This document shows positions 13,721 through 58,789 of a stretch of 64,000 nt of DNA, piece after piece (positions within the stretch are counted from its first letter, which is position 1; every line of letters begins with the position of its first letter). The stretch is from Candidatus Bathyarchaeota archaeon (lineage in GTDB: Archaea > Thermoproteota > Bathyarchaeia > 40CM-2-53-6), in assembly GCA_963833125.1 (NCBI GenBank), contig CAWHWX010000019.1:96001-160000 (forward strand), written 5' to 3'. Under the pieces are notes generated by a model. The model had not been told where the DNA came from, ran no database searches, and saw only the letters and a program-made list of their open reading frames with translations. A program made the translations under genes and the position numbers.

Positions 13721-13792
13721 ATTGCAAACCAAGCCCTTTGCATGCCGAACTTAATTCAGTACATATTTCACAGTCACGATGGCAAGCTCGTT

Positions 13793-20601: not shown

Positions 20602-20633
20602 TGACGATAAATGGTCCGTGTGAGTACTAGACC

Positions 20634-23160: not shown

Positions 23161-23785
23161 GTGACGAACCAATCGCCACGAGCGGTTAACATGGACGAAA
23201 CCAAGCTGAGAGAAGATCTTCTAACGGTAACGAAAAAAGTCGCAGAGCGCGGCTGGGCGCCCGGCAGCAGCGGAAACACCAGCGTAAGAATACCCGACAC
23301 CAATAGTTTTCTGATAAAAGCCTCTGGAGAGGCCATGACGTGGACTACTTCAGAGGCGCTTCTCAAGATTGATCCTGCTGGCAAGATTCTTACAGGCGAG
23401 GGTCGACCCTCGAAAGAGGTAGGTTTCCATCTGGGTATCTACTCCAAACGACCTGATGTCGGGGGTATAGTGCACGCACATCCCCCATACGCCACATCTT
23501 GGGCGATAGCCGGCACAGTCTTTCCACTTGTAACCGCTCCCTCCAAGGTTTGGTTGAAGAGAATTCCTATGGTCGAACGGGCGCCATCGGGCTCTGCCGA
23601 ATTGGCTGGGATGGTTACCGAGGCGTTTCAGGATGAATCGGTGCGAGTGGTCCTGATGAAAGGGCATGGGGTTGTAGCCGCAGGCAAAACGATCTTCGAA
23701 GCCTTCAATTTTGTTGACTGGGCGGAGGACTGTGGCGAGGGCCGCAGTGTTCACCGGTCTCATCGCTAACCTGCCGAAGAGCTAG
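23161..23785 (+). CDS. Class II aldolase/adducin family (FucA/AraD-like), frameshift near 23734
   Basis: GN.SVR, PSKE..FH..IY..RPD, VHAHPPY, KGHG. Confidence 0.9.
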
Positions 23786-23787
23786 CT

Positions 23788-26577: not shown

Positions 26578-29500
26578 TTGCGTAAGAAATTAGTTGCAAC
26601 GCTAACAATCGCTATTTTCCTAATTAGCACATTAGCGGTGATTGTTCCAACTCAAGCGCATTTCACGTTGGGTAATCTGTCGGGAACTTCCCCGTACGAC
26701 ATTAACAACTTTGATCCGCACGTCGCTGGGCCTATTGGTTATGTTTGGCCTGGCAGCGGTCAATGTGCGTATCAGGGTATCCCGAACCAGGCAAACAGTA
26801 ACTGTTCGCCTGGTTATCAGTCACCTTACCCGAACGGTAATCCTCCGGGTGCACCGAGCAATTCTTGGTATCAGCTTCAAGGGGACACGTATGCCCCATT
26901 CGGAGCGGTACTAACGAGCTCGACGGGTGACCTGATCTTCGCAATAAACGCTACCTGCACACCGTCACAATGGAAGTCCGGATGCAATGGTAATACTAAG
27001 ACTGAAATTCAGTCAACGCTAAAAGACAATTACGGTTGGGACACGTTAAGCATAATGATCCCACCGGAATTCACGGTCAAGGATGCATCCCAAATCGTAT
27101 CCACCCTGACGAACAATTACGCCAACGTATGGGTGGGCAGGCTCTCACCAGACGATAGATATGCGCCAGGCTGGACCCTAGTCCTGATACAAGCAGACGC
27201 TATCATAAACCCCGGATACAACCATCAATTCCTGAACTTTACAAGCGCTGGTGAATGGTACTACGTAAGAATCAACGGAGTAACAGCACCAGCAACAGCT
27301 GGAAGATACTTCTTCAAAATGTTCCTTTACTCAAACCTAGCTTCAGGTTCTAACCAGTACGGTGTCGGCCCAACCCTAGCAGCATCTGGCGGAGCCAGTG
27401 GCGGAGAGAATCCAGACGTTTGGGTACCGCCCCAAAACTGGCCAGTCATGCTGGTCAAGGGTGAGACCGACCCAGCCATTGTAACCGGAACTATCCGGTA
27501 TGCTGGCTACAACTCAACCCTATACGGGCAACCGATCGCTGAGGCTGGAACGGTTTGGGCGAACATGACTATGCGAATCGACCCATACACCGGCCAAAAC
27601 CGACCCGACCTACCAACCATTAACGCACAAGCATTCATCAACAACACCTCGAACGGCCACTATGAACTAGAAGGCATGGCACCAGGCGTTTACGATATCT
27701 ACGCTTCCGCAGCTGGATACCCACAAGCGCTTTGCGAGAGTGGAATAACGGTCCTGAAGGGACAGTCCCTTCACTTCGACTGTTACCTCCAACCAGGGCC
27801 AGTGATTCACGGCAACGTGTTCACGAAGCACCAATTCGGTGACGAACCGTGGCCATCATCGACGGATTCTGGAGTCGGTGTCAGCTCCGCGACTGTGGGT
27901 CAATACATCAAGATTGAACTCTACTCAGCCGCGACTCTAAGCAACCTAGTTGACCCAAGCGCCGGCAGCCCAGTCTCATGGTCCCCGCTACCATGCACCG
28001 GCGGGAGGCCAAGAGAAGTACTATGGCCGCCGCGCAGCAGGACTCTGCGGCGACCCGCGCCTTGGAAGTTTAATTGCGTTTCCATGGCATGAGTATGCCC
28101 CGAACAGCCTCGGCCCAGCATACAACGACGTACCAAACCCATTCACCGGAACAACGAACGGCTACACACGCGACGTTTCGTGGAGCAACAAGTGTGCACC
28201 AGGCAGTAACCCTGGAAACCTCGGAAATGCCGCTACCTGCACCTTCCTAACCTCAGACCCTGAAGGTGTCGGTCCACCACAACAATGGTATGTGGCTGGC
28301 GGTACTACGACTCCGTTCCACTTTGAGTTTGGTTTGAAGGGTGAGTACGGTGCTCCCCAAGGCCTGTCCGGCGAGGTGCCGCAGGTTTACGCTACTTGGA
28401 TCAACGGTCTCACAGCAGGCAGGTACTATGTACGTGCTTGGGTCTTCCGTTACGTTCAGACAGCCCTGGACGGTTCTACCTTCCAGGAGTACTACTTTGA
28501 CGTAACACCTAACGAGTGGGCGGGTGACGTTACATTGCCTCTTGACCTACGCTTAAGCAGCTGGGTTAACAAGACAGTGTACTTCCACGACACACCAAAC
28601 ACGATCACAACCAGTCCAATCCACAGTGGCGCAGGTTACCTTTGGGGTAACTTGATAGGCGCTGACGGGCACGTATACGCTCACAATGTAACCAACCTAG
28701 GATACAACGACAAATACTACCAAAACTGCGCCTACGATGTTAACTCCAACGGGAGACAATCCGATAACCTGGGAACTTTCGTGAGCTACAATGGGTTCCT
28801 CGGCTCCGGCGAAACAGGCGCACCGACGCAAGCCTGTCCAGGCGCAACTGACCAACTCGACAGAGCTCACCTCAACAAAGATGCCATTGCGACCGGTAGA
28901 GCTGTTATACAATTCTGGGGCCTCAACGATACATGGGGTGGCGAGAACTACGGCATCCCATCTGGGACATACACTCCGAACGTGGCCACAAATGGCTACT
29001 ACAGCCCAACGCCGTTAGAACAGGTATCGGTAACGCTAAGCGGTAACCCAACACTCGTCAGCGACCACCTCTTCCTAGCGCCAGGCTTCAACGTATCAGT
29101 ATACAGCATTGACTGGGAACGACCCGGGTCAGCAGGAACTGGGTATGGTCCGGATGCCAAGACGGAATGGCGTTCGGCCTCGCAACTGGTAAGGGCAACA
29201 TCGGCAGCGGCAACGCCGGCAAAGATAACGGCTGTCTAGGGTCAGAGATCGACCTAGGCTTCTACCCGGTAGTGAACGGCACTGCGGGCAAGGTCTGGGA
29301 CACGGCCGGTGACGTCTCTAGTGTCTTCTACCTACCACCAAGCATCTTCACCACACATCTGTACCAAGGTCCAGAAGGAATAGACTGCTTTAACCCATCA
29401 CAGACCGACGGCTTCAAGGATCCTCTGGGACCACAGCCCTACTCCTTCAATTGCAGTGAAATGGATGGCGGTGGACGCAACGTACTACAAGGATTCAGTA

Positions 29501-30978
29501 ACTCCCATGATGTCTTCTACGGTGAATCAGCACGCTACGCATTCGTCGGCGGATACACCGCTGGCAAGAATGGATTCACTACACAGGCGAAACTCTTGGT
29601 GGACCTTATGTTCACTCAAAATAGAGTCGTCTGGCCACTTCACTTCAATGAAGGTCCATACAACCTCGCAGCCTACACGTACGGCTACATACAAGACAAA
29701 GACTTCACAGCCTACGCACAGAACGGCCAAGTGGCCGACATGAAAGTCAACCTAATCATCGGCGTGAACATAACACTTGATATTCTCTTCAAGAAAGAGA
29801 GCATCATAACACCAACCGCCGAGAACATGTCTGCACGAGTTCGCTTCTTCAATGACCAAAGCCAGTTGGTAGCTGAATGGATGTCCAGTGAAGGCGTCTA
29901 CGTAAACACTCCTGGCCACGCCATAGCAGCCAACGGTGCAACGGTAGCAAGTGGGTTCGTGAACCCAACTTCTCCACAATACCCATTCAGCGACCAGGCG
30001 GGTCTACAGAAGCCCGCATCTGGCCTACAAGCATACAACTTCCTACCTGCAGGAACAACGCTACTTCACATGCTTACCGCAGGCTTACCACAGCAGCCGC
30101 CAGCAGGATTCCTCCTAACCAACCCGTCATACTTCAGCGATCCGCTGCAGGGCGGTGGCGGTGCCTTCGGTGACTGCGACTTCAATCTCTGGTGCTTCCC
30201 AGCCCCGTATGCTCAGTACCCGTTCCCCTACACGGGAATAGCGGGTGCTCCAGACTACACGGGTGGGTGGACAGCTGAAGCCGACTTCGTCCCATGGTAC
30301 TCCGCCAACGCGGCCTCGATGGAAGCTGCAAGCGGTGGACTACAAACAGCATCCGCACCAGGCTCATTCGCGCAGTACTATCCGCCAGTCAACGGTCTGC
30401 TGATGGGTGAATCGTATCACATCATCCCAGGCACGACCGCACTCTCAGGCATCAGCCTAACCGAAGACACAGCATTGAACGAGTACGTATCGCCACCAGG
30501 CAGCGCTTTCGTCGGCCATACGATGGCGGCGAATCACTTAGGTCCGTACTCGCAAGAAGGAGTCTGGCAAATCGCAGGAACTCACAACAGTGGTGAAGCT
30601 AGTGCGATCTTTGAAGTTGATCTGAACGGGTTCGTCTCAGGCAACGTTCTCGCCTTCACGTGGAGCAACGAGTTCCGCACACTCAGCTGGGGTACAGTCA
30701 GCGTGACTGGCGCTTGCGGAGCAACGTGGAACTTCTACACGTACGATGGCGTTTACCAAGCCTTCCTGCCCACAGGCAACTACAAGTTCACCCTAAGCCA
30801 ACCAGGATATGCGCCTCAAACCTGGTCCGTCTCGGTCTCACCAGGCCAATCCGGATCCGGACAGAACGTATACCTGGAGCAAAGCAACATCCCTGTCCCA
30901 GAGTTCAGTGCAGTAGCGGTTGTCGCCTTTTCAGCGTTAGCAGCATCTCTATACCTACTCAGACGAAGACGCAACTAA
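26578..30978 (+). CDS. Large (~1466 aa) secreted PEF-CTERM surface protein, two compensating frameshifts (~28000, ~29125)
   Basis: Signal peptide ending TQA|H, G/N/T/Y/P-rich beta-type sequence, carboxypeptidase-regulatory-like segments, C-terminal VPEF + TM + RRRRN. Confidence 0.85.
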
Positions 30979-30986
30979 GCGTCCGA

Positions 30987-31024
30987 GCGCCCCTCAAAGG
31001 CGCCCGTATCCCTTTTCCTTTTTT
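30987..31024 (+). terminator. Hairpin plus oligo-T terminator
   Basis: GCGCC-N7-GGCGC followed by CCTTTTCCTTTTTT just after the PEF-CTERM stop. Confidence 0.6.
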
Positions 31025-31173
31025 CCGATAATATACTAGAATACTAATCAGAGGAGAGTTTTCCGATTTATCATAGGTAAAGAAGAAACGATATTCGTGT
31101 CTCGGGCTAAGCGTGCGCCGGAAAGGCGAGCGCCAGCTGCATCGAGAGGTCTTCCCTTTTTGTCGCGGGCAGG

Positions 31174-31588
31174 CTAAATCGTTGGGTTGTTTTCGTGGTA
31201 GCGGAAGGTTGGGTTCTCAAGTTGCTTCGAGGCTAGCTTCCAATCGACCTTCCCATTGGCTGCATTCCATTCGACGAAGGCTGCGCCCTCACCCGCCCAT
31301 GCCGGAAACTTCGATACCGTCGGTGTGTGGGTGCATTTTCAAGAAATTCTGCATCGCATCTCTATCTCGCCACACAGACATCGTCCAAAACCGTTTGTGC
31401 GGTAAATCGGTTTTCAGACCATATCTGATCAAACCTTTCGACTGTTCCAGCTGCTTCTGCACCTTTCCACTCATCAAAAAGAATGGAATGATGTGCCTCC
31501 AACTTCGGATGGGTAGTACGGTTGCGACGCAGAGGAATTCACTGGAACCCCGATCCCCTTCCACCTCAACCGTTCTTTGCGGCGACAT
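31174..31588 (-). CDS. DUF3291/ABM-like dimeric alpha-beta barrel protein (frameshift near 31315)
   Basis: Q..QSKGLI.Y, FWTMSVW....AMQNF....PH; shifted tail AAFVEW. Confidence 0.6.
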
Positions 31589-31792
31589 GGCAAATCAAAC
31601 GCTTCTGGGAGCTGATCCTACTTAACAAATTTCGGAAAGAGGCGTTGGTTGCAGGTTCTTCATTTGCCTATATAACGGAATAGCAGCAATTCACATAGAG
31701 ATATGCGAAGAAGTTTCTGGCTTACGAACTTTTGATAAGGCAAGACGTCACGCATATTGATTCCCCTTTAAGGTGCAACGGAGGTTCAAAGT

Positions 31793-33303
31793 ATGCCCAA
31801 GCTTGCCGCAATCGATGTTGGTTCCAACGCTATGCGGCTCGCTATTGCATCAGCTGACGACGATGGCAGAATCCACATAATCCACACAGACCGCGAGGCC
31901 GTGCGCTTAGGAGAGGACGTATTCGCGACTGGCGAAATATCTGACGCTCGCCTTGTTGAAGCAATGAATGCATTCCTCAAGTTTCGGAAATTGATTAATC
32001 AACATAAGGTCAAGTCGGTGAGAGCTGTTGGGACTAGCGCTCTAAGGGAAGCTAGGAACCGAGAGTACTGCATAGGGCAAATTTCCAAGGCCACGGAGAT
32101 AATGGTAGACGTAATCAGCCCAGAAGAAGAAGCTCGCCTAGTCTACGTAGCTGTATCAAGAACTCTTAGGCTTGAAGGAAAAGTTGCGCTCCTCGTTGAT
32201 GTTGGCGGCGGCAGCGTGGAGATTAGCCTCGCAACGGAACGTGAGATAATTGCCACTGAGAGCTTCGGAATCGGTACCGTAAGGCTGCTACAAATGCTCG
32301 ACCATCGGAAAAGAGGAGACAGGGTTTTCCGGCAACTCGCCCGTGAATACATCAACGTTTCCGGAACCCGGCTTAGAAAGGAAATCGGTGAACACGCAAT
32401 AGACCTCTGCATTGCGACGGGAGGCAATGTTGAATCACTCGGAGACTTCGAGTTCAATTGTGTGACGCCAACAATGACACGTCTATCTCACTGGATGAGC
32501 TCGACTCTATTCTCAAACAACTCCAATCAAGGTCGTACGAAGAAAGGGTCAAAGATTTCGGGCTTCGACCGGACAGAGCTGACGTCATTATCCCCGCCAT
32601 AATTGTGCTCCAAATTGTGGCGAAGGAGGCGAGGATTCAAGAAATCGAAATTCCTCGGGTTGGAGTCAGAGAAGGACTACTCATTGACATGGCACGGGGT
32701 TTGGGCCGCGGTTCGGGTCCACCCGACCGAACTCAACTCATCACTTCAGCGAGGCTTCTGGGAAGAAAATATGATTATGAGGCCGAACACGCACAAACTG
32801 TTGCAAGATTTGCAGTCGCTCTATTTGACGCGACCAAGAAACTCCACAAACTTGATACAACCGAACGAACTTTGCTTGAAGTGGCCGCACTCCTTCACGA
32901 CATTGGATATTACATTGGGACATACAATCACCACAAGAACTCCTGGTATCTGATCAACGCGTCGCCCCTGATCGGCGTGGATGACTCCGATAAGAGCGTC
33001 ATTGCCCTTGTAACTCGTTACCACAGTCGTTCTTTCCCTAAGTCGAGTCACAAGGAGTTCATGGATATCTCGCCGAAACGACGGAGGACTGTGGTAAAAT
33101 TGGCCAGTATTCTTCGATTAGCTGAAGCGCTTGACCGCGAACACTCCGGGCGAGTTGAAAGCGTGAAAGTTACTGTGAGAAAGAAGAAGTTAATCTTGCT
33201 CCTTAAAGGCAAGGGTAACCTCTTACTTGAGAGGTGGGCGCTAAATTCCGGGTCGAGGTTGTTCGAGAAAACCTACAAGAAGAAGATAGTGATCGCGCCA
33301 TGA
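31793..33303 (+). CDS. ppx: Exopolyphosphatase Ppx/GppA with HD domain (frameshift near 32447)
   Basis: AIDVGSN, GTSALREA.N, EEEA.L, DVGGGSVE, DRADVI, GVREG, AALLHDIG. Confidence 0.93.
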
Positions 33304-34878
33304 GTTCGTCAGAACAGAAGCCGCTACCCGGGAAGCTGATCGCCGTAGAAGGAATTGATGGTTCGGGAAAATCCACTCAAATCTATCTGCTCCGCAGATG
33401 GCTTGAGTTAGAACGGTACAAGGTAATTTTCACGGAATGGAATTCATCTTCTCTGGTGAAAAAGGCAACACGGAAGGGAAAAAAGAAACGCCTATTGACG
33501 CCAACGACATTTTCTCTGATCCATTGCACCGACTTCGCCGATAGATATGAGAGACAAATTCTTCCGTTACTGCGAGCCGGCTACCTAGTACTTGCCGACC
33601 GCTACGTATACACAGCTTTCGTTCGTGATATGGTTCGGGGATGCGACCCGGAATGGGTGAGGAATCTCTACAGTTTCGCACGACACCCAGACGTCACATT
33701 CTTCTTTGACGTCCCATTAGAGACGGCACTCTCACGGATTCTAGAAGGCCGTCCGGAGTTGAAGTATCATGAGGCCGGCATGGACCTCGATCTCTCCCCC
33801 GATCCCTATGAAAGCTTCCGAAGATTCCAAGGTATGCTGAACAACGAATACCACAACATCGCCCCCAAGTACAACTTCATAGTAATAGATGCAAGCCGCC
33901 CCCCCGACGACCAGCAACAATCAGTCCGATTTCGTCAACCAGCGAATAGATCTATCAAAACATAAGGCGAAGGGACCACTGCCGTTTCCACCTGGACTCC
34001 TCGCGGCTCGCTTCCCGGAGCAGAAATTTAAGAGTGCTCTGGGAGAGGCGCCACAAGGGAAACCGCTGCAAACCGTGGATCCCGCTAATGATGTGCTGAC
34101 ATTAGCGGATGCTGGAGACGTGACATTTCCGTTCCAGATTAATGGCTCTGAAAAGCATTTCTTTGGCAAAGGCCTTCCTAAGGTCAACCTCGCACAACTC
34201 AAGGGAAAACTGCTCGTCGTCGAAGGGTCAGATGGATCAGGAAGATCTACACAAATCGACCTATTGCACAAGCACCTAGAAGTCCTCGGCTATCCGACAA
34301 TAGACGTCGGTCTAAAACGGTCACGTCTGTATCCGGAATTGCAGGAAGCTCTTCTGGGGAATACGCTAAGCCCTGTCACAATGACCCTCTTTTACGCGAC
34401 CGACTTTGCAGATCAGCTCGAGAACAACATCCTTCCCGCCCTGAGGGCTGGTTTCGTAGTGCTTGCCGACCGTTACATCTACACGCTCATGGCCCGTGAA
34501 GTCGTCCGGGGGATGAGTAGGGAATGGGTGCAGAAAATGTACAGTATTGCCTTGGTTCCCGATGCCGTGTTCTACCTCGCTGTCAGCCCTCGCATTCTCG
34601 CAGAACGCAACCTCATGAAGAGCGGATTGCTCGACTTCTGGGAATCGGGAATGGACATTCGCCGTTCGGGGGACATGTACCAATGCTTCGTCGATTATCA
34701 ACGAAAAATGCGCGCAGAATTCCAACGCATGGCTTTGGATTACAAATTCGAAACCATTAACGGAAACAGATCCCCCCTTGCTATACATCGAGAATTGAGA
34801 TCCAAGGTCGAAAAAGTTCTATCGAGATTACCACCAATTGAGACTCATCACGATAAGGAGCCTGCACCCAGCAATTGA
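33300..34878 (+). CDS. Tandem thymidylate-kinase-like domains, probably one fused protein; candidate family-3 polyphosphate kinase
   Basis: Domain 1 EGIDGSGKSTQ...ADRY; domain 2 EGSDGSGRSTQ...ADRY; frames join near 33930; ATGA overlap with ppx; CHAD and SixA downstream. Confidence 0.75.
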
Positions 34879-35114
34879 GAAAAAGAAAAAGTTCGGTAAG
34901 AAAGAAACAGGTCCCGCAAACGCGCAGAGCCCCGGCGCGGCGCAGATTGAGCCGTTCAAGAACAATATTGCAAGATAAACGGCTGGCGATAGGTAAATCG
35001 AGGAGAAAGCAAACCAAACCCGAACACGTTCCACAAAAGCCCTCCAAAAAACCAAAACCGAAACCAAACCAAGACCGAGACCAAAAACAACACAGAAACC
35101 GAAGCCGGCAGTGA
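34875..35114 (+). CDS. Highly basic K/R/P/Q-rich 79-aa ORF, or frameshifted N-terminus of CHAD-SixA
   Basis: TTGA and GTGA 4-nt overlaps at both ends; low-complexity basic sequence. Confidence 0.5.
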   Translation: MRKRKSSVRKKQVPQTRRAPARRRLSRSRTILQDKRLAIGKSRRKQTKPEHVPQKPSKKPKPKPNQDRDQKQHRNRSRQ

Positions 35115-36568
35115 AATCTGTAAGGTCTGTCGCTCTCAAGAAAGTCCCCAAACGTAGAGTAGCTGTGAAGGCGGCCCTTCGACGAACATCCGGCGGGAGG
35201 GACGTCCTGAATTTCATTATTCTAGCCCTAGACAAGCGATGGAACGATTACCTAACAAGTTTGAAGCGCTATCAGCAGCTAGCTTCGGTTAAGAATGTCC
35301 ACGATCTCCGCGTTAGCATTAGACGCCTCACTACAACCATAGATTTGATCGATAGATTCAATCCGGATAACGTAGTCCGGCAGGCTCACGTCAAACTCAA
35401 GGACCAACTCCAAGAGCTAAGTGTTCTTCGAGACGTTCACATCGAAATGGTAAGGATGCGAGGTTTTCTGAAAGAACTACCCGAGACGAAGGAGTTCTAC
35501 GACGAGCTACGTGACAAGGAAACCAAGTATCTAAAGTCCGCCAATAAGATCCCCTGGAAATCGGATAGAAGATTTATTGAAAACGCCGTCAACAGAGCTA
35601 GGATTAGGCTAAACGCCCGGCGCGCCACTACTACGTCAGAGAATTCTCGCAGAATAGTCGACGCCGCGTTAGACGTTTCTTTTGATAACTTGAGCAAGAA
35701 ACTTGAAGATGTTACGCCCGCGGATTATGCCTCGATTCATCGAGTGCGGCTTGCCTTCAAGCCGCTGCGGTATACAATTGAGATGCTGCAGCCAGTGGTG
35801 GGACTGGATAGTCGGCAGCTTAGAACCGCCACGCTTCTCGCACGACTAATGGGACAGATTCAGGATCTCGAGGTTCTCATGAAAGATCTAGTTGAGTTCA
35901 GATGGAAGAAAGGAAATGTACCTGGTGCGGTAGTAGAGATATGGTTGGACCTTGAACGACGGAAAATGGAAGCAACCCAACGCTTTCTTAGGTCTATTCC
36001 GAAATTCGGTAACATCTGGAAGCCAGTTATTCATGAACAAACAGGCGTAGCATCCTCAGCTTCCAAGACGTTATTCATTCTTCGGCACGGGATAGCTGTT
36101 ACTCGTGGCGATGCAGCTTACCCTTTAGATTCCGATCGACCTCTAACGATGAAAGGTGTGAAGAGGCTTCGTCGGATCGCCAAGGGCTTGCGTCACTTGA
36201 ATGTTCAGTTTGACTTGATCCTGACGAGTCCGTATAGGCGAGCTTTGGAGACAGCGTTCGTCGTTGGGCGCGAGTACGGGGTGGGACAGATAATTCAAAC
36301 TTCCCAGGCGCTTAGACCCGATGTACTTCCGGAGGAAGCCATCAGAGCCGTGCAAGAGAAGTACTCGCCATGCCGGCGCTTGCTCTTGGTGGGACACGAA
36401 CCTCAGTTGAGTGCGTTGATTTCCACCTTGACAACGGGAAGCGCAAGCGCGAGACCGGTGCTTAAGAAAGGAAGCGTTTGCAAGCTTCAAGTAGAAAAAT
36501 TACTAATGGGCAAGTGCGCAACACTGATCTGGCTGCTTACCCCAAGGCAACTGATCAACATCGCCTAA
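35111..36568 (+). CDS. CHAD polyphosphate-binding domain fused to SixA-type phosphohistidine phosphatase
   Basis: VHDLRVSIRRL, LRD.H, IHRVRLAFK.LRY, MG.IQD; then LRHG, DSDRPLT..G, TSPYRRA.ETA, VGHEP. Confidence 0.9.
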   Translation: MKSVRSVALKKVPKRRVAVKAALRRTSGGRDVLNFIILALDKRWNDYLTSLKRYQQLASVKNVHDLRVSIRRLTTTIDLIDRFNPDNVVRQAHVKLKDQLQELSVLRDVHIEMVRMRGFLKELPETKEFYDELRDKETKYLKSANKIPWKSDRRFIENAVNRARIRLNARRATTTSENSRRIVDAALDVSFDNLSKKLEDVTPADYASIHRVRLAFKPLRYTIEMLQPVVGLDSRQLRTATLLARLMGQIQDLEVLMKDLVEFRWKKGNVPGAVVEIWLDLERRKMEATQRFLRSIPKFGNIWKPVIHEQTGVASSASKTLFILRHGIAVTRGDAAYPLDSDRPLTMKGVKRLRRIAKGLRHLNVQFDLILTSPYRRALETAFVVGREYGVGQIIQTSQALRPDVLPEEAIRAVQEKYSPCRRLLLVGHEPQLSALISTLTTGSASARPVLKKGSVCKLQVEKLLMGKCATLIWLLTPRQLINIA

Positions 36569-36674
36569 AATTCAACTCTCCCACAAATGAATGAGCGAAA
36601 CGTCTGTTGACTCACGGAGAACAAATTTTTAGTCTTCAGGCGCATTTTGTTACCGACGAGAGTTGGGGATCAAG

Positions 36675-37517
36675 TCAGATAGGTACTGTAGGTTTCAACC
36701 TCAAGCCGGTCCGAACTATTATGTTCAGCCCCAAGACTATCATCAGTAGTATGAAGGCTGCCCCCCAAGCGAAGGCGTGCGAGTTGGGATACGGGGAAGT
36801 TCCAAAGTCAAAAATAAGCACGGTCATGGTGGCTGTAGGATCGAAAACAGTGTTCATCATGAATTGGCCGCCGAGAGCCGTGAAGAGTAGGGGAGCGGTT
36901 TCCCCCACGGATCGAGCAACAGCCAGGCAATGCCCGTAATGATTCCGCTCTTAGCGGTCGACACAAGGATGTAGAGGAGAGTCTTTGACACTCCTCCGAG
37001 GGCCAAGCCACCTTCCCTGATATAAGAGGGCACAAGTCTCAGGGATTCGTGTGTCGATATCGCCACAATAGGCATCATCATGAAACTCAGCGCGATCCCG
37101 CCGGCGACGGCTGAAAATCTGTGTAAGGTGGCCACAACCAAAACATACACGACAATGCCCGTCACGATGGACGGAACCCCTGTGAGAACCTCCGCGATCA
37201 GTCTAACGTAGTTTGCGACTCTACCGGGGTATTCGGATAGATAAGCCCCCGGCTAAGAGTCCTATGGGTACACCGATTATGGACGCTATTCCGACCACCA
37301 CTAAGTTACCCTCTAACGCATTCAATATGCCTCCGCCGCTTCCGCCGATTGGAGGGGTGATGTGCGTGAAAAAGTCTGGATTCAGCACGCTATATCCTAG
37401 GGTGGCGGTTTCGTAGAGGATTGAAGCTAATGGGATTATGGGAATTAGGAAGGCAAGTGTGGCTGAAACCGTAAACAGTCTATTGCTGAACCGTCGTCCA
37501 CTCAGGGATCTAAACAT
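36675..37517 (-). CDS. pstA: Phosphate ABC permease PstA (two frameshifts)
   Basis: GGGILNAL.G, G.PIG, GVPSIV.G, LRLVP..IREG.LALG, GETAPLLFT. Confidence 0.9.
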
Positions 37518-38483
37518 CCGTTGACCCCCGGGGATGGAAACTTAGTCTCGAAATTAGTACTCGACCTGCCAGGTTCATCAGAAAAGCGATCGCAAGAGAA
37601 TCAGACCGAGCTCGAATAGAGCGGCGAGGTAAATGTTGTTTCCTGCGACTTCTGTGAACTCATTAGCGATCACGCTTGGGATAGTTTCTGCAGGAAGGAA
37701 AAGTGAAGGGGTGATTCGTGCGACGTTCCCGATGACCATTATGACGGCCATGGTCTCTCCGATGGCCCTGCCCATCGCTAGAACGATGGCCGCGATTATG
37801 CCTGTGCTGGCATACGGAACGACTGCCATTCGGATTGTCTCTAACCGTGTTCCACCCAATGCGATGCAAGCCTCTCGCTGACTACGCGGGACCACCACAA
37901 CAACTTCCCGCATAACTGCGGACGCATACGGGGTGATCATGATCGCCAAAATGAGACCGGCGGTGAGCATTCCGAGTCCGTTTGTTTCACCCGCGAAGAT
38001 TGGAATGAATCCGAGTGAGCCTATAAGTCCGGGATCTATGTAATCTCTCATGAAGGGGACGAGAAAGAATAATCCCCAGAGTCCATAGACTACGCTAGGT
38101 ACGGCAGCAAGTAATTCAACTAGAAAGATCGAGGGCAGTCGCAATTTCCTAGGAGCCAACTCTGATTGAAATAGGGCAACACCCAAGCTTATTGGAACCG
38201 CAAATAATAGCGCAATTAACGTTGTCACTATGGATCCGTACATTGCGGGGAGTGCTCCCAAGATTGGAGGTCCACCGTTGGGCGGATTCGGAATCCATAG
38301 GGTACCTGTCAAAAAGCTGAGCCCTAGGGCTTGAATAGAGTCCAAGCTTCCAGTGTAAAGCGAATACACGGTAAGAGCCGCGATGATTGGAATCGCAACC
38401 GCTGCAATAATTAAGACGAAGTGCAAAAAATCATGGTGCCGTGTCCTTTGACGAACACGGTTTTTCTCGAGTTGCTTTTGCAT
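37510..38483 (-). CDS. pstC: Phosphate ABC permease PstC (frameshift near 37594)
   Basis: ELLAAVPSVVYGLWG, AIMITP, GRAIGETMAV. Confidence 0.93.
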
Positions 38484-38499
38484 TGTGCGCCGCTAGCTT

Positions 38500-39772
38500 C
38501 TATCCGGTCAGGAGGACTGTACCTTGGTAGTTGAGCGTCATCAGTAGTTGTTCGTCAGCTGCAACAACGTTTGCTGGGAGTGGTACGTAATCCAATGGCA
38601 TTGAATACTGCTGTCCATCATGGATTGCCCACCAAAGGAAGTGTACTAGGGCTTGTGCCTTAGCGAGAGTTGTGCTAGGGTTTGCAGACAAGTCTCTGTA
38701 GACGAGGATGTAGGTGTAGGTTGAGATCGGATAGGATTGTGCTCCGGCGGCTTCTACTAGGTGTATTCTAAGATCGTTAGGGTTAGGGGCCTTGCGTTCT
38801 GAGCGGCGTAAAGGATCGTTTGTAGAGTTGGTACGATGAAATTGCCTGCTGGGTTCTTGACCGCGCCTACCCCGAGGTTATTTTGGACTGCGTAGATAAG
38901 ATCAACATAGCCTAATGCTCCGTTGGTGTTCGCCACCGTACCTGCAACTCCGGAATTACCCTTTGAGCCAACGCCATAAGCCCCAAGCTTCGTGTCAACA
39001 GGCCAGGTCACCGAGGTACTGTATCCCACTTGTGCTGCCCAGTTTGGGACGGCAACTGACAAGAAGTTCGTGAAGGCATATGTCGTTCCGCTGCCGTCTG
39101 ATCTGTGTACGGCGGTGATGAAGCCGTTCGGTAAGGCGACACCAGGATTAAGCGCCACTAGAGCTGGATCATTCCATTTGACTATGTTTCCCATGTAGAT
39201 GTTAGCTATGACCTCTGGTGTGAAGTTCAGTGTGACATTATTGCTTACGCCCCATGCTTGCAAATTGTAAGTAATGGCCACCCCACCGAGTGTCTCAGGG
39301 AAAAGAGTGAGACCTGGCGGGCCGCCAACTGTTGGTTGTTTAGTGGAGCGTCGGAGGCACCAAAGTCGACTGTCTTTGCTGATATCTGTTGGATTCCGCC
39401 GCCGCTACCAATGGGATTGTAGCTTATGGTAACTGCAGGGTATAGCTGGTTGTAAGTGACCGTCCATTTCTGAAGTAATGGGGCGGGAAACGTGGCCCCC
39501 GCTCCAAGAAGCGAGACGGGCGTCGTTGGTTGGTATCCTGCTACAGAAGATGTTGCTGACACCATGGAGGTTTCGGTCATGGTCGCTGAAGTCATCACCG
39601 ATGACGCTGACGACATCATCGACGATTCAGAAGACATAACTGATGCTGTTGACATGCTTTGAGCTGTGCTACTGTTCATTGTCGTGAAGTAGTATCCTCC
39701 TGCAACTGCCGCCAATATGACGACAACAAGAGCAACTATTCCGACATTACGCTTGTTATTCTTGCTCGACAT
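38500..39772 (-). CDS. pstS: Phosphate-binding protein PstS with N-terminal TM and M/S/T-rich linker (two frameshifts)
   Basis: GAGATFP, GSGGGI, DFGASDAP, HRSDGSGTT, YPISTYTY, YVPLP. Confidence 0.92.
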
Positions 39773-39826
39773 GCGAATCATCGCGAGCGCACGTAGCCTC
39801 CCATTCTTATTTAGCCAAAACGCATT

Positions 39827-39876
39827 GTGAACATGCGTACATATGTGTGTTCACCATCATCTATATGATTCATATA
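39827..39876. promoter_or_regulatory. Two inverted repeats in the divergent pstS/pstB intergenic region
   Basis: GTGAACA-N14-TGTTCAC (39827-39854) and TATATGA-T-TCATATA (39862-39876). Confidence 0.5.
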
Positions 39877-39929
39877 ACTCGCATTCAATTACTCAATGAT
39901 CACAGTAACCGAATGGTCGGTAGCGAAGC

Positions 39930-40758
39930 ATGACTTCAGAACTCTTAACGGAGTTGCGCAGTACTCCAGAAACCGACAAGAGAGCTCTAGATTTGTCCAC
40001 CCTAAAGGAAAAAATGCAGGTAACCAGCCTAAGCGCAGGATTCGGTCGAAAAAAAGTTTTGGATGACATATCAATCTCGTTTAAGGAAAATACCGTTACC
40101 GCTATAATCGGCCCTTCAGGATGCGGGAAGTCCACATTCATCCGTTGCCTCAACAGAATGCATGAGGTCAACCCAGATGCATGGACTACCGGTCACATAA
40201 TACTCGACGGCGAAGACATTCTTGCCCCCTCGATGGATCCTGTAGTCGTCCGTCGAAGGATAGGGATGGTATTCCAAAAACCGAACCCATTCCCGACAAT
40301 GTCAATTTACGATAACGTCGGCAGGCCTTCGGTTGAATGGCGTTCACGATCGCAAGGTTATCGCTGAAAAGGTTGAAGAGAATCTTAGGAAATCTTTCCT
40401 TTGGGACGAGATCGGCGACAGGATAAAGGAATCGGGGACCAGCATTTCAGGTGGACAACAACAGCGGTTGTGCATCGCACGCACCTTAGCCGTGGAACCT
40501 GAAGTAATTCTCATGGACGAGCCGTGCTCAGCACTCGATCCCATAGCAACCGCAAAGATCGAAGAACTCATAACCAAACTGAAGTCCACCTACACCGTAA
40601 TCGTCGTAACGCACAACATGCAACAGGCAGCTCGCATCTCCGACCTAACCGGATTCCTATACCTTGGCAGGCTCATCGAGTATGGGCCGACGACAGAAAT
40701 ATTCCAGAACCCACACAATGAGCTCACAGAGCGCTACATTAGCGGAAAATTCGGGTGA
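39930..40758 (+). CDS. pstB: Phosphate ABC ATPase PstB (frameshift near 40320)
   Basis: [45 protein letters not shown]. Confidence 0.95.
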
Positions 40759-40764
40759 AGCTCG

Positions 40765-41391
40765 ATGCCGCGGCTCATGGACATGGGAGAAGAAAGGCTC
40801 TCCAGCGCAATCGTGGACATGTCAAACCTGGCCCAAGACTCAGTAGTGAAAGCCATCGAGGCCTATGAGAAAGGGCAGAAAGCAACTGACCTCGCGCGCA
40901 AGAGAGCAGCTCAACTAGCGCAGTTAAGCGCGGAGGTTGAGGAACTTGGCGTCGACCTCTTGGCACGTTATCAACCCGTAGCAACTGATCTACGTTTCAT
41001 CAAATCTTGTCTTGAAATTGCATATGGTTTTTCTCGATTCGGCAGATACGCCTTCGACATCGCACTGGTTTTAGAGACGTATGGCGACTTATCGCTTTGT
41101 GACAAATCGGTCGTTCACGAGTTAAGCGAGAAAGTTAACGGCATGATCGAAAGAAGCATCCAATCTTTCAAGACTCGCGACACGGAACTCGCTCGGTCAT
41201 TACGAAAGGACGACGATGAGGTTGACAAAGTGTACTACAAGTACACCGCCGCGATGGCCACCGATAAGTCCGTCACGGTTCGATGCGCCCTCGCATCTAC
41301 TTTGGTGTTAAGATATTTGGAAAGAATTGCTGATCATGCCTGTTACATCGGAGATTCCGTTGTCTACATTGTAACTGGATCGAAGGCCTGA
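40765..41391 (+). CDS. phoU: Phosphate signalling protein PhoU
   Basis: ARYQPVATDLR, DDEVD, LERIADHA. Confidence 0.92.
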   Translation: MPRLMDMGEERLSSAIVDMSNLAQDSVVKAIEAYEKGQKATDLARKRAAQLAQLSAEVEELGVDLLARYQPVATDLRFIKSCLEIAYGFSRFGRYAFDIALVLETYGDLSLCDKSVVHELSEKVNGMIERSIQSFKTRDTELARSLRKDDDEVDKVYYKYTAAMATDKSVTVRCALASTLVLRYLERIADHACYIGDSVVYIVTGSKA

Positions 41392-41393
41392 CC

Positions 41394-42511
41394 ATGAAAG
41401 GGGATACGCAGAATCCGAAGAAGGAGACAGACGAAGAGCAATCTGCGCCTGAGGATCGGTATGTTCGCCGTGTACAGGTCACTGGCCCGGATCCTACATA
41501 GTATCGTTGCCTAAGCCTTGGGTTCAGGAGGCGGGCCTGAGAAAGGGAGGTAGAGTTGAATTTAGTAAGCAGGAAAATTGGGGACTCACTCTTACGCCGT
41601 TCGGGAGCACTAAGTACGATGACGAACGCACCCGATGTATCTTGTCACTTAATTCCAATATCGACCCCGATGCTTTAACCCGAATGATAATCTCGCTTTA
41701 TGTTGCTGGATATTCGACGATTGAGATCAGATCAAAGTCAGGAAATCTCTCTTCTAAGATTCGAGACACGATTCGTGATGTTGCGAGGGGTAAGCTTGTG
41801 GGCACGGAGTTGGTTACTGAATCTGCCCAGAGCGCAACCCTGCAGGTGCTCTTAAGCTACCCTCAATTGCTCGTACCGGACGCTCTGAGAAGAATGCTGT
41901 CAATTCTAAACGCAATGCAACAGGATTCCATGCAAGCCCTCTCCAGATTGGATAAAGATTTGGCAAATCAGGTTGTCAAGATTGACGATGAGATCGACAG
42001 GTTCAGCCTGTACGTGATTAGGCAACTAAAGTGGGCCGTAAAACACCCCACCCTACTTTCGAGAATCGGTTTAGCCTCGCCCGTGGAATGCCTTGGGTAT
42101 AGGATCATCAGCAAGAGCGTTGAGCGTTCTGCAGATCATGCTGCAAGGATCGGAGTGAACGTCCTTCTTCTGCAGCAGGCGCCTGGAGCATCCTTATTCA
42201 AGGACGCCAACGCGCTGAGCCAGCAATCGTCAAGAATGATGGAGACCTCGCTTCGAGCTTTGTTCGCCAGCGATTACAAACTTGCGGAGAGCGTGCTTTT
42301 TGAAGGTGCGAAGGTTACTGATCTCGAGTCGAGGCTAGTTGAGAGATTACTGAAGGAGAAGCTTCCAGCGGGCGACCTCTCCGCGATGCGCTTGATTTCA
42401 GAAAGCCTAAGACGAATCGGAGAATACGCAACCGACGTTGCGGAAGTCGTCCTCAATTCAACTATTCAAAAAATGTTGGACCAATCCGACGGTATCGAGG
42501 CCGAGCCATAG
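41394..42511 (+). CDS. AbrB-domain / PhoU-domain phosphate uptake regulator (frameshift near 41487)
   Basis: RRVQVTG-GSYIVSLPKPW AbrB motif across the frameshift; DDEIDR, ERSADHA, RIGEY. Confidence 0.88.
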
Positions 42512-42526
42512 AGTGCGCAGTTGGCG

Positions 42527-42715
42527 CTAATCGGAAACCGAGACGACGTGGATTCTAGGTCGAAAGACAGCCCTTGCGGTGATATTGACCGCATAGCCCC
42601 CATGCAGGCCACAAAACTCTTCGCAGGATTCGGCGACCTCAACATCCGTATACCCAAAGCCGCAAAGTTCACACACGTAGATCATTCCATATCTGCTCTG
42701 TCTTCGTTCAACCAA
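42527..42715 (-). CDS. Small zinc-finger protein (62 aa)
   Basis: YVCELCGFGY......A.SCEEFC..H; upstream GGTGA SD on the minus strand. Confidence 0.65.
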   Translation of the reverse strand: MVERRQSRYGMIYVCELCGFGYTDVEVAESCEEFCGLHGGYAVNITARAVFRPRIHVVSVSD

Positions 42716-42732
42716 TATCTTTCACCAGGCTG

Positions 42733-42891
42733 TCATACCGCGGCTAGCGGGACGAGATCCTCCCTCATGTAGAATCCCTTGAAACCGCAATTGTCGCACT
42801 TCGCCCCTATGGGTGAATCGCCGTCGTCATAGTATAGGTTGAGGCTTAGGAGTCCACACTTCGGGCACTCGGAGCCGATCTCTTTCTCCAT
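42733..42891 (-). CDS. Small Zn-ribbon protein (52 aa), not in ORF track
   Basis: MEKEIGSECPKCGLLSLNLYYDDGDSPIGAKCDNCGFKGFYMREDLVPLAAV*; CPxCG plus CxxCG. Confidence 0.72.
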   Translation of the reverse strand: MEKEIGSECPKCGLLSLNLYYDDGDSPIGAKCDNCGFKGFYMREDLVPLAAV

Positions 42892-43250
42892 CGACCAACC
42901 ATCCGATTGTCGTTTACTGCTTACTCCGCGAACCAGGCGTCGCCCTCAGAAGGCGCAACTTCGGATTCGAGGTTCACATGTTTTTTCCTTGTCCGTGTCA
43001 TTTTTCGTCGCAATAAATTGGCCTTCTCAGGGATTTAGCAGGTTTTCTCGTAATTCATAGCAGTAACGTGATTTCCCATAATTCATGTCACCGAGGTGTG
43101 ATTCGGAGGAAAAGGGATTGGCTAACCAGCTGGAACGCCAAGAGATATTCGAATCAGGCGCTGGGTTTCCGGGGTCTCTTCAGATGGGGACTCCGGCAAG
43201 GTTTAATATCGTTCTGCCTGTTCGCTAATGTAAATTTCGGTGAGCGAGTC

Positions 43251-43751
43251 ATGTCTAAGGATTTTAGGCTTGTCCTACGTGTCGCAGGCGCAAACATAGA
43301 CGGCACCAAGAAGGTTGCCTACGGCATATCCCACATCAGGGGTGTGGGCCCAAGCTACGCCGCTGCCATAGTGAAGGCCACCGAAATCAAGCCTGAGCTT
43401 AGAATGGGCGACTTATCTGAAGCTGACGTGCAGAAGCTGGAAGACGCGATGCGTGACCCCGCAAAGTATGGCTTGCCCCCACGCCTTTTCAACCGCCGCA
43501 AAGGTCCTGATTCAGGTCGGGATATGCATTTGATAGGCGCCGACCTCACGCTAAGCACGAAGACTGACGTCGATTTCATGACCGATATTCGAAGTTGGAA
43601 AGGAGTCAGGCATTCTCTGGGCCTGAAAGTTCGAGGGCAACGGACGCGCACGACGGGCCGAAAAGGTAGAGCAGTTGGGGTTGCCAAGAAAGTTGTAATG
43701 GAAGCCGCTCGAGCTGCAGCTCTAGCCGGCGAGAAGGAAGAGAAGAAGTAG
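43251..43751 (+). CDS. rps13: 30S ribosomal protein uS13
   Basis: IDGTKKV, GVG, NRRK, SWKGVRHSLGLKVRGQRTRTTGR; ATG 43251 with GGTGA SD and TTTAATAT at 43202. Confidence 0.97.
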   Translation: MSKDFRLVLRVAGANIDGTKKVAYGISHIRGVGPSYAAAIVKATEIKPELRMGDLSEADVQKLEDAMRDPAKYGLPPRLFNRRKGPDSGRDMHLIGADLTLSTKTDVDFMTDIRSWKGVRHSLGLKVRGQRTRTTGRKGRAVGVAKKVVMEAARAAALAGEKEEKK

Positions 43752-54961: not shown

Positions 54962-55104
54962 GGAATAGTTAGAGTTGGACTGCAATTCTTTCGGGCCCAC
55001 TTGATGCGCGAACAACTCTTTAACCCACCATTTTAATAGTGTCACGCCCGTTTGAACAACAGTCAATCTCTCTCAACACTCCGAGATGGTGGGTGACTCA
55101 TCCC

Positions 55105-55854: not shown

Positions 55855-55857
55855 CAG

Positions 55858-58759: not shown

Positions 58760-58789
58760 GGCACAGAAATCCACCGAGAGCAAAGCCGA

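Follow-up and report, generated by a model that had tools for sequence, protein, structure and literature searches.

A probable PPK3-type polyphosphate-turnover operon adjoining a phosphate importer in a Bathyarchaeia genome

The locus described here lies in a 64,000-nucleotide stretch of Bathyarchaeia DNA analysed as a whole (the window) and probably represents a polyphosphate (polyP)-turnover operon of the published PPK3 type, adjoining a high-affinity phosphate importer and its regulators (Table 1). As read from the sequence, the intact plus-strand operon comprises three apparently translationally coupled genes: ppx, a fused PPK3, and a gene encoding a basic tail, a CHAD domain and a SixA-type phosphatase. 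In relatives with intact genes, PPK3 comprises 526 aa and two thymidylate-kinase-like domains, and the basic-tail-CHAD-SixA protein has 563–592 aa. The preliminary description of this DNA had placed the ppx, thymidylate-kinase-like, CHAD-SixA, Pst and PhoU genes correctly in position and strand, with pstSCA convergent on the operon and pstB-phoU-AbrB/PhoU divergent, and Pfam agrees, returning Ppx-GppA, two Thymidylate_kin domains, CHAD with His_Phos_1, fragments of PstS/PstC type, one ABC ATPase, and PhoU in two separate proteins. The reported ATGA (33300–33303) and TTGA (34875–34878) overlaps are likewise present, the latter setting the TTG start of the third gene over the PPK3 stop codon and recurring in relatives G022 and G016. 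PPX, SixA, CHAD and Pst genes, the neighbourhood that marks PPK3 operons, all lie inside 10.7 kb.

Table 1. Features of the locus, in window coordinates
Feature	Coordinates	Strand	Evidence and remarks
Locus	31793..42511		plus operon ppx–PPK3–CHAD-SixA; minus pstSCA; plus pstB–phoU–AbrB-PhoU; Pfam, tblastn
ppx (Ppx/GppA exopolyphosphatase), ~502 aa when intact	31793..33303	+	PF02541 + PF21447 on two pieces
PPK3 N-domain, cPPK3-like (predicted catalytic)	33300..33926	+	Walker A GIDGSGKST, DRY; ATG overlaps ppx stop (ATGA)
PPK3 linker + C-domain, rPPK3-like	33928..34878	+	linker ~75 aa, predicted disordered; C-domain from ~34180; Walker A GSDGSGRST, DRY
basic-tail-CHAD-SixA gene	34875..36568	+	tail 34875–~35200; CHAD ~35285–35881; SixA ~36071–36568; Pfam CHAD + His_Phos_1
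pstA (permease)	36678..37517	-	tblastn with G016 PstA; three ORF pieces, indels near 36926 and 37250
pstC (permease)	37513..38483	-	C-terminal 26 codons shifted, 1-base deficit at 37593
pstS (phosphate-binding protein, Ser/Thr/Met-rich N-terminal region)	38503..39781	-	frame breaks near 38789, 39319
divergent pstS/pstB intergenic region	39782..39929	.	TATA-like boxes; imperfect palindrome GTGAACA-N14-TGTTCAC
pstB (ATPase)	39930..40758	+	split 39930–40367 / 40333–40758, 2-base deficit near 40318–40320
phoU, intact, two PhoU repeats	40765..41391	+	Pfam; TIGR02135 116.6 bits, under cut-off 130.25
AbrB/MazE-type DNA-binding domain + PhoU repeats	41394..42511	+	first 31 codons in other frame; indels near 41389–41392, 41487

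The kinase forms the centre of the operon. Although it appears in the window as two overlapping ORFs (33234–33965 and 33889–34878), it is a single 526–527-aa ORF in G019 and G022, so that the double thymidylate-kinase-like gene first reported does contain two such domains and is nevertheless one gene. The fused form recurs in 17 protein clusters of 526–532 aa, at no less than 65% identity and 97% coverage. In phmmer searches its N-domain matches the Sulfolobus tokodaii cPPK3 homologue (STK_15430, PDB 2plr/5h70) with an E-value of 4.9e-63, against only ~1e-14 for canonical dTMP kinases, and the two are ~52–57% identical. The C-domain matches 2plr at 2.3e-37 and shares 41–42% identity with the N-domain. 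The Walker A and DRX motifs of the N-domain, GIDGSGKST and LADRY, are present in the window ORF and invariant in 29 fused homologues. For the G022 orthologue, AlphaFold predicts two confident domains joined by a disordered linker (residues 227–283, pLDDT <50; whole model pLDDT 80.9, pTM 0.77), and the top Foldseek match of this model is 5h70_B, with a TM(target) of 0.95, an rmsd of 1.4 Å and 52% identity. Moreover, PPK3 is under purifying selection, with dN/dS against G019 of 0.025 for the N-domain and 0.12 for the linker and C-domain at a dS of ~0.5. The earlier proposal that the thymidylate-kinase-like genes beside ppx, CHAD and SixA encode a polyP kinase holds by homology to cPPK3, as does the assignment of the locus kinase to PPK3.

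The closest described system is the SaPPK3 operon of Sulfolobus acidocaldarius, in which saci_2017 encodes SixA, 2018 PPX, 2019 cPPK3, 2020 rPPK3 and 2021 CHAD (Hofmann et al., J Biol Chem 2026, PMC12995831; preprint bioRxiv 2024, 10.1101/2024.08.28.610084). Both loci encode PPX, CHAD and SixA modules together with a catalytic and a regulatory part of thymidylate-kinase fold, and in both genomes a canonical dTMP kinase is encoded elsewhere. Whereas the Sulfolobus operon has five genes, the present one has three through two fusions, one joining cPPK3 to rPPK3 and the other joining CHAD to SixA with a basic tail; in its regulatory part the DRX arginine is retained while Walker A carries a Lys→Arg change, a PPK2 co-occurs in the genome, and the operon adjoins pstSCAB-phoU. 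PPX, CHAD and SixA are named as partners in PPK3 operons in sections 4 and 8 of that paper, and with PstC and PstS also appearing there as neighbours of PPK3, the locus is not the little-described system it had been taken for. The Data S1 table of PMC12995831 scores Bathyarchaeota 0/0/0, with 24 Bathyarchaeota rows among those listed. Measured against this published type, what is new is modest: a Bathyarchaeia host, the fusion of the catalytic and regulatory parts, the fusion of CHAD and SixA, a clade nested among bacterial two-gene PPK3s, a relic alone in sister genomes, and, beyond the Sulfolobus-like family, a regulatory part with the DRY arginine but a Walker-A Lys→Arg change.

The regulatory half merits separate consideration. 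A second dTMPK-fold paralogue is encoded together with cPPK3, here, in G019 and G022, as the C-domain within one ORF. According to section 7 of PMC12995831, the hallmark of rPPK3 is replacement of the DRX arginine; this replacement was not seen in the window or in any aligned fused form, where D392, R393 and Y394 are invariant. By simple patterns run on tblastn segments, DRY is kept in 76/76 bacterial partner proteins and 14/14 of families f38/f82, in contrast to the Sulfolobus-like family f53, in which D-R-Y occurs in 0/14 partners and A-D-G-Y in 5/14. On these sequences, only f53 partners appear to be without DRY, the altered residue elsewhere being the Walker-A lysine, replaced by arginine in 74/76 bacterial partners and all 14 f38/f82 loci by the same pattern searches, and by arginine or histidine in the aligned fused forms. 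The C-domain might accordingly be read as a second working site, for nucleotide or polyP binding or another phosphotransfer step, rather than a dead regulatory module, and most PPK3s would then work unlike the Sulfolobus enzyme. The retained DRY, a sole Walker-A change that is conservative and widely conserved, the divergence of the f53 partners and the constraint on the linker and C half speak for this reading, which we nonetheless regard as unlikely: a Walker-A Lys→Arg change usually abolishes phosphotransfer in P-loop kinases, and the motif counts come from simple patterns. In PMC12995831, moreover, Saci_2020 proved inactive.

Bacterial two-gene PPK3 pairs, from Verrucomicrobiota, Bdellovibrionota, Chloroflexota, Geobacteraceae and other MAGs, are close relatives, their N-type proteins being 63–74% identical to the window N-domain. 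As in the fused protein, the Walker-A K/R dichotomy is seen and each partner carries DRY, and the N-type Walker A lysine and DRX arginine are kept in 76/76 bacterial N-type proteins; they differ in organisation, since all 76 complete loci (of 80 fetched) hold two adjacent genes and none a fusion. In the tree, the window clade falls inside the bacterial pairs, with SH-aLRT values of 88 for the mixed clade and 96 for the fused clade. A survey of neighbourhoods, suggested in the preliminary description, finds ppx beside the kinase pair in 14/14 f53 loci and 36/80 bacterial loci. Across the 80 bacterial loci, tblastn with archaeal queries shows that partners vary, with ppx at 36 or more loci, SixA at 11 or more, CHAD at 7 or more and individual Pst genes at 1–11, all of these counts being underestimates. 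A further parallel is provided by class II PPK2, in which a catalytic P-loop kinase domain and a paralogous domain that looks inactive likewise share one chain; it belongs, however, to a P-loop family other than the dTMPK superfamily, and its inactive domain is N-terminal, whereas the altered domain is C-terminal here. In the two-domain enzymes of this class (e.g. P. aeruginosa PA3455), the inactive domain is thought to serve oligomerisation (PMC12995831).

The flanking operon genes encode the remaining modules. The ppx product scores over the cut-offs of PF02541 and PF21447, corresponding to the Ppx-GppA N-terminal domains and the HD-like domain III, while its 215.6 bits against the NCBIfam exopolyphosphatase model TIGR03706 fall under the cut-off of 307, so that either PPX or GppA specificity is conceivable. 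Intact orthologues have 502 aa in G022 and 503 aa in G016. In these two relatives a single ORF, of 563 and 592 aa respectively, spans the basic stretch, CHAD and SixA. The CHAD domain (PF05235, cut-off 25.6) scores 72.1 bits in the window and 63.8 and 73.0 in relatives, and the SixA equivalog TIGR00249 reaches 78.8 bits on the G022 orthologue against a cut-off of 74.5, with the catalytic RHG motif visible in the window ORF as LRHGIAV. The tail is rich in Lys, Arg and Pro (median K+R 0.285 and D+E 0.035 in 40 homologues with an annotated tail), a composition that would suit polyanion binding. CHAD-domain proteins and histone-H1-like basic proteins such as AlgP are known from polyP granules; the combination of CHAD with a low-complexity Lys/Arg/Pro-rich tail is common to these and the present protein, which differs in its fusion to a SixA-type phosphatase. 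Both domains co-occur in ~98 protein clusters, among which the sole taxon labels are Bathyarchaeia. A basic ORF at 34875–35114 was considered as a gene of its own and rejected, the tail being severed by five surplus bases near 35059–35069; the earlier gene count, with a separate basic ORF, was therefore too high, and the GTGA overlap at 35111, formerly taken to couple two genes, is an artefact of the same surplus.

In the turnover scheme suggested by these modules, PPX would hydrolyse polyP to phosphate, and the N-domain of PPK3 would act as the catalytic cPPK3 in reversible phosphotransfer between ATP and polyP, an activity expected by homology to the Sulfolobus enzyme. The C-domain would be the counterpart of the rPPK3 partner, tethered by a flexible linker of ~60–75 aa. 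The basic-tail-CHAD-SixA protein may bind the polyP granule by means of its CHAD domain and polycationic tail, and would thereby bring the histidine-phosphatase domain to the granule. PstSCAB would import phosphate, probably under regulation by PhoU and AbrB-PhoU. Characterised PPK3 is biased towards ADP + polyP → ATP (PMC12995831), and the polyP synthesis once attributed to the locus is uncertain.

Nor is the cycle self-contained, as had been proposed. The window is indeed free of PPK1 and PPK2, as first noted, but the recommended genome-wide check gave a divided result: a PPK2 (PF03976) is encoded on contig C16 of the same genome (G000:C16:411693-412370, 240 bits), the only match genome-wide, while PPK1 (PF02503, PF13090) had no match in a whole-genome search of this 87.8% complete genome. 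PPK2 occurs in 12/23 genomes of the genus and in 4/5 of those with PPK3, and could carry most of the polyP metabolism. In this respect the genome departs from the majority of PPK3 genomes, which have neither PPK1 nor PPK2 according to PMC12995831, where this is stated of a majority and not as a strict definition.

Compared with intact orthologues, frame-breaking indels interrupt ppx, PPK3, CHAD-SixA, pstS (twice), pstC, pstA (twice), pstB and AbrB-PhoU (twice) in the window. Specifically, ppx is split into ORFs 31793–32602 and 32458–33303 by a one-base deficit near 32445–32449, and PPK3 is two bases short at 33926/33927, where independent metagenome contigs (runs X1 and X2) carry the missing GT behind 33927. 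The preliminary description mentions none of these interruptions. Because indels occur window-wide, with 14 frame changes in the ~53 kb outside the locus by tblastn against G016, the likelier cause is error in a noisy assembly of mixed strains, with no biological meaning. The same bin (87.8% complete, 7% contamination) holds two more copies of the locus, on C37 and C25 (90–93% nucleotide identity), with different breaks; 56/58 and 27/28 of their indels relative to the window, respectively, are not multiples of three. A run search did not find the source reads, only two runs holding 5–7% of the sampled words.

PPK3 is lost from the sister genomes G013, G014 and G017, which retain a degenerate relic of its N-terminus between ppx and CHAD-SixA, so that real decay in this population is conceivable: the frameshifts would be mutations, PPK3 and the Pst genes pseudogenes, and PPK2 and other transporters would have taken over. 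Consistent with decay, breaks are denser in the locus than in the rest of the window (5 in 10.7 kb by the same tblastn measure, ~11–12 by DNA alignment), a PPK2 is available, and PPK3 is broken in four of six genus copies (window, C37, C25 and the otherwise clean G016, with one PPK3 frame break) and intact in G019 and G022. We consider it quite unlikely, however, since the dN/dS values indicate that PPK3 was strongly constrained up to the very recent past, breaks also affect neighbouring genes throughout the window, and the three bin copies carry different breaks, mostly one- or two-base deficits. Furthermore, independent frameshifts in pstS, pstC, pstA and pstB would hardly leave the 83–97% protein identity to G016 that these frame-broken copies retain.

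That both thymidylate-kinase-like domains are ordinary dTMP/NMP kinases lying beside ppx by chance is scarcely credible: NCBIfam does label the fused protein a dTMP kinase (TIGR00041, 164 bits, over cut-off), as source databases label its relatives, but a better-scoring canonical dTMP kinase is encoded elsewhere in the genome (G000:C4:114712-115236; 118.9 bits with PF02223, where the locus domains reach 79.7 and 63.3), the N-domain is far nearer the cPPK3 homologue than any true dTMP kinase, the pair has ppx, SixA or CHAD as neighbours in bacteria and across archaeal families, and Saci_2019 has PPK activity while the dTMPK function is assigned to a third paralogue, Saci_0893 (PMC12995831, section 4).

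The importer adjoining the PPK3-type operon is well defined in the relative G016, whose orthologues pass the equivalogs for PstS (TIGR00975), PstC (TIGR02138), PstA (TIGR00974) and PstB (TIGR00972), and whose AbrB-PhoU orthologue has 372 aa with PF04014 and PF01895. Between pstS and pstB, the imperfect palindrome is kept in close relatives only, its right arm being altered in G016.

The N-terminal kinase domain of the locus aligns with the Sulfolobus tokodaii homologue of cPPK3, the catalytic subunit of the thymidylate-kinase-fold polyphosphate (polyP) kinase PPK3, at an E-value of 4.9e-63 (PDB entries 2plr and 5h70), compared with about 1e-14 for true dTMP kinases, while the C-terminal domain matches 2plr at 2.3e-37. 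An AlphaFold model of the orthologue from G022, a genome of the same genus, built on a 29-row alignment (pLDDT 80.9, pTM 0.77), displays two confident dTMPK-fold domains connected by a disordered linker (residues 227–283), and its best PDB match is 5h70_B (TM 0.95, rmsd 1.4 Å). The canonical dTMP kinase of the window's genome resides on a different contig, C4; annotation pipelines still call the fused kinase 'dTMP kinase'. The cPPK3-specific match and the separate dTMP kinase argue, at the level of sequence comparison, for the polyP kinase activity that the preliminary description had proposed.

According to Hofmann et al. [quoted passage not shown] PPK3 neighbourhoods in that source include PPX, SixA, CHAD, PstC and PstS. 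Because this operon is published, the locus does not qualify as the little-described system it was first taken for; it is a predicted PPK3-type polyP operon of an already published kind, distinguished by a compact fused architecture and a new host class.

Locus content was read from the ORF list and a Pfam scan of 31793–42511, and indels in the window were located by protein-guided and DNA alignments to relatives. The plus-strand genes converge on minus-strand pieces of pstA, pstC and pstS; divergent from pstS lie pstB in two pieces, phoU and a further PhoU protein, in that order. The preliminary description had gene content, order and orientation right, although it did not mention that ppx, pstS, pstA and pstB are split.

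Features of the phosphate locus and frame-disrupting indels of the window relative to related genomes
Feature	Position	Strand	Detail	Basis
Ppx/GppA phosphatase, two pieces	31793–32602 and 32458–33303	+		ORF list, Pfam
Two Thymidylate_kin ORFs	33234/33300–33965 and 33889–34878	+	77-base overlap	ORF list, Pfam
Very basic ORF	34875–35114	+	79 aa	ORF list
CHAD + His_Phos_1 ORF	35111–36568	+		Pfam
Overlap	33300–33303		ATGA	sequence
Overlap	34875–34878		TTGA	sequence
Overlap	35111–35114		GTGA	sequence
Indel, ppx	~32446		window lacks 1 base	alignments
Indel, PPK3 domain junction	33926/33927		window lacks 2 bases	alignments
Indel, CHAD-SixA repetitive tail	~35059–35069		window has 5 surplus bases	alignments
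Indels, pstA	36926 / 37250		window lacks 1 base / has 1 surplus base	alignments
Indel, pstC	37593		window lacks 1 base	alignments
Indels, pstS	38789 / 39319		window lacks 4 bases / lacks 1 base	alignments
Indel, pstB	~40319		window lacks 2 bases	alignments
Indels, AbrB-PhoU	~41390 / 41487		window lacks 2 bases / lacks 1 base	alignments

The same locus is conserved in three genomes of the genus, G019, G022 and G016. In G022, ppx encodes 502 aa, both kinase domains occupy one 526-aa ORF, and the basic tail, CHAD and SixA form one 563-aa ORF whose TTG start overlaps the kinase stop. The fused kinase of G019 comprises 527 aa, and the tail-CHAD-SixA protein of G016 comprises 592 aa; G016 additionally carries intact pstS, pstC, pstA, pstB and phoU together with a 372-aa AbrB(MazE)-PhoU protein. 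Given these single ORFs and the window indels, the separate basic ORF and the GTGA junction are artefacts, and the 'double TMPK-like gene' is one fused gene with two kinase domains. All three 4-nt overlaps reported earlier are literally present in the window; when intact, the coupled unit consists of three genes. A free-standing basic polyP-binding protein is ruled out by the continuous ORF of the relatives.

Two further features flank or punctuate the locus. A pyruvate-kinase-barrel protein of 513–617 aa, absent from the window, lies between a large 1391-aa surface-type ORF and ppx in G016 (locus L023, 13652–15505) and in C25, another contig of the window's bin. The divergent pstS/pstB promoter region contains an imperfect palindrome, GTGAACA-N14-TGTTCAC (window 39826–39853), which is kept in contig C37 of the bin, is 10 bases shorter in C25 and has a changed right arm in G016. 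A search for a shared operator motif found no 8-mer that recurs both upstream of ppx and between pstS and pstB.

The frame breaks probably reflect a noisy, strain-mixed assembly. The bin to which the window belongs, as contig C19, spans 3.07 Mb in 39 contigs, with 87.8% completeness and 7% contamination. When G016 ORFs serve as queries, about 53 kb outside the locus show 14 frame changes relative to the syntenic G016 genes, at window 5051–6384, 11738–14618, 16638–17628, 20523–21609, 23734–25306, 26794–31588 and 54873–61091, and the locus itself shows 5 by the same measure; DNA alignment counts about 11–12 breaks inside. Two further versions of the locus are present in the bin, on C37 (12.5 kb, 92.8% nucleotide identity) and C25 (90–92%), which break at different places from each other and from the window, and nearly all of their indels relative to the window have lengths not divisible by three (56 of 58 for C37, 27 of 28 for C25). 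Purifying selection acts on the coding sequences: compared with G019, the window's N-domain gives a dN/dS of 0.025 and its linker plus C-domain 0.12 (dS about 0.5), and against G016 the value is 0.03–0.05 for phoU and the CHAD-SixA core. In two runs of an independent sediment metagenome, contigs include the 'GT' following 33927 and carry corrections at several other sites. Reads of the source population were not found: two DNA runs of one study contain 5–7% of the sampled words, no RNA run does, and contigs from those two runs represent relatives rather than the source population, which leaves them neutral between assembly error and mutation.

The alternative is that the mutations are real and the locus is decaying. 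It is favoured by a higher break density inside the locus than outside and by the finding that 4 of 6 examined PPK3 copies are broken, including one break in G016, where only about 3 frame changes occur in 72 kb. In addition, ppx directly precedes CHAD-SixA in G013, G014 and G017, three same-genus genomes without the kinase, with a degenerate PPK3 N-terminus relic in between. These relics, covering the first ~35 PPK3 codons including a decayed P-loop, lie at about 10651–10749 of L147 (G017), 11215–11330 of L146 (G014) and 10250–10370 of L148 (G013). PPK3 was thus deleted in these genomes, not absent from the start, and its loss is a real process in the genus. For the window itself, assembly error remains the preferred explanation, and its gene splits serve as a warning on assembly quality rather than biology; split genes elsewhere in the bin are not to be taken as pseudogenes without reads.

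The three locus versions (window 30974–43475, the whole of C37 and the 23-kb C25), at 90–93% nucleotide identity, indicate that the bin mixes related populations. C25 differs in its upstream gene, which is pyruvate-kinase-like as in G016, and in its downstream DNA. The window lacks a 3.3-kb insertion that C25 carries between CHAD-SixA and pstA (L178, 8513–11256). This insertion contains an arsenic-resistance set (an LMW phosphatase/ArsC-like gene, an ArsR-type HTH, a SAM methyltransferase and an SBF/ACR3-type permease) and sits immediately next to the phosphate importer.

The preliminary description also regarded the locus as self-contained and called for a genome check for PPK1 and PPK2. A PPK2 (PF03976, 240 bits) is encoded on contig C16, and PPK1 domains were not found in this 87.8% complete bin. 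PPK2 occurs in 12 of 23 genus genomes, including 4 of the 5 with PPK3, and lies 5–6 kb from ppx/CHAD-SixA in G013 and G014; it therefore belongs to the lineage rather than to contamination, and the PPK3 locus is not self-contained. Taken as a whole, the original observation is confirmed in part and its interpretation supported in part.

Host assignment draws on several labels. Within the 90% cluster of the G019-type protein, one member bears the label 'Candidatus Bathyarchaeia archaeon', which two CHAD-SixA homologues share. An initial assignment to Nitrososphaeraceae, suggested by GC content and PMC12995831, was dropped in favour of this label. The G022 fused kinase (P0001) has an identical protein labelled 'Candidatus Acidoferrales bacterium' at NCBI, yet its genome groups in the window's genus; for this reason, and because the sister protein is labelled Bathyarchaeia, the G022 bin is probably mislabelled. 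The 24 Bathyarchaeota rows in part 1 of 400 of Data S1 of PMC12995831 all read 0/0/0, a literature search turned up no publication on PPKs in Bathyarchaeia, and the accessible text of the preprint and journal versions of PMC12995831 contains no mention of a fused PPK3.

At a presence threshold of E<=1e-35, an N-type protein occurs in 7 of 401 genomes of the class sample, all of one family (five from the window's genus, including the window, and two from a second genus), and in 29 of 401 genomes of the phylum sample: 12 of 56 in family f38, 14 of 15 in f53 and 2 in f82. Family f53 appears to be Sulfolobaceae-like, and f38 and f82 are presumably ammonia-oxidiser families. Fused and split states were scored by reading through to the stop codon. 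Among the best 80 of 592 confirmed relatives, all bacterial, the two parts are adjacent genes in all 76 loci that have both; the other 4 are truncated. The protein collection holds 17 close clusters of fused proteins, and more distant ones include one labelled Alicyclobacillus tolerans. In a quick ML tree (77 N-type sequences, single outgroup, long-branch warnings), the window groups with G019, G016, G022 and one database protein (SH-aLRT 96), and this clade nests within a mainly bacterial group (SH-aLRT 88), separate from the split PPK3s of the same family (G009, G333), from f38/f82 and from f53. The fused state requires at least 4–5 changes on this tree.

The second domain departs from the Sulfolobus subunit. 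PMC12995831 explains rPPK3 inactivity by loss of the DRX arginine; Sulfolobus rPPK3 lacks this arginine, whereas the window C-domain keeps D-R-Y and instead has the Walker-A sequence GSGRST. By simple patterns on tblastn segments or ORFs, bacterial partners show Walker-A Lys->Arg in 74 of 76 and D-R-Y in 76 of 76, and f38/f82 loci combine both in 14 of 14; D-R-Y is missing only in f53 (0 of 14), where A-D-G-Y occurs in 5 of 14.

In Sulfolobus CHAD and SixA are separate genes, while here they are joined in a single polypeptide that begins with a basic tail. About 98 clusters contain both CHAD and SixA-type Pfam domains, all at least 45% identical, and the full-length fusion occurs in 11 of 59 family genomes. 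An annotated tail of at least 10 aa is present in 40 of 100 homologues, with medians of 66 aa, K+R 0.285, D+E 0.035 and Pro 0.115. The SixA equivalog model scores 78.8 bits against a cut-off of 74.5, and Pst equivalogs match as well.

Following PMC12995831 and general knowledge, the fused enzyme would transfer phosphate between polyP and ATP/ADP, its main role probably being to regenerate ATP when energy charge is low, while PPX would free phosphate from polyP. The SixA domain may be held on polyP by CHAD and the polycationic tail. PstSCAB would supply phosphate, with PhoU and the DNA-binding AbrB-PhoU protein controlling it, and nucleotide/polyP chemistry may be shared with the PPK2 elsewhere in the genome. 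A broader reading, which we consider rather improbable, denies that the 'regulatory' partner is a dead, arginine-less subunit in most PPK3 systems (bacterial, Bathyarchaeia, f38, f82): there it would be a conserved module whose DRY clamp is intact and whose Walker-A motif carries a Lys->Arg switch. The single-chain Bathyarchaeia enzyme would then, coupled with a CHAD-SixA phosphatase that is tethered to the granule and bears a polycationic tail, form a compact three-gene polyP 'battery', in which the enzyme's second domain would sense or bind nucleotide or polyP and SixA would act at the surface of the granule on a phospho-protein or on polyP ends.

PPK3 was described only in 2024–2026, with biochemistry from one organism. 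The fused form would test the role of the second domain, as it retains the arginine whose loss is used to explain Sulfolobus inactivity, and a natural single chain with catalytic and regulatory parts fixed at 1:1 would suit structural work and polyP-driven ATP regeneration. Bathyarchaeia, abundant sediment and soil archaea, join the groups that have PPK3, in their case alongside PPK2, which bears on how phosphorus is stored in sediments. A different fusion is represented by the 417-aa metagenomic protein P0246, in which a PPK3-like kinase domain (Thymidylate_kin, PF02223) is joined to a SixA-type phosphatase (His_Phos_1, PF00300).
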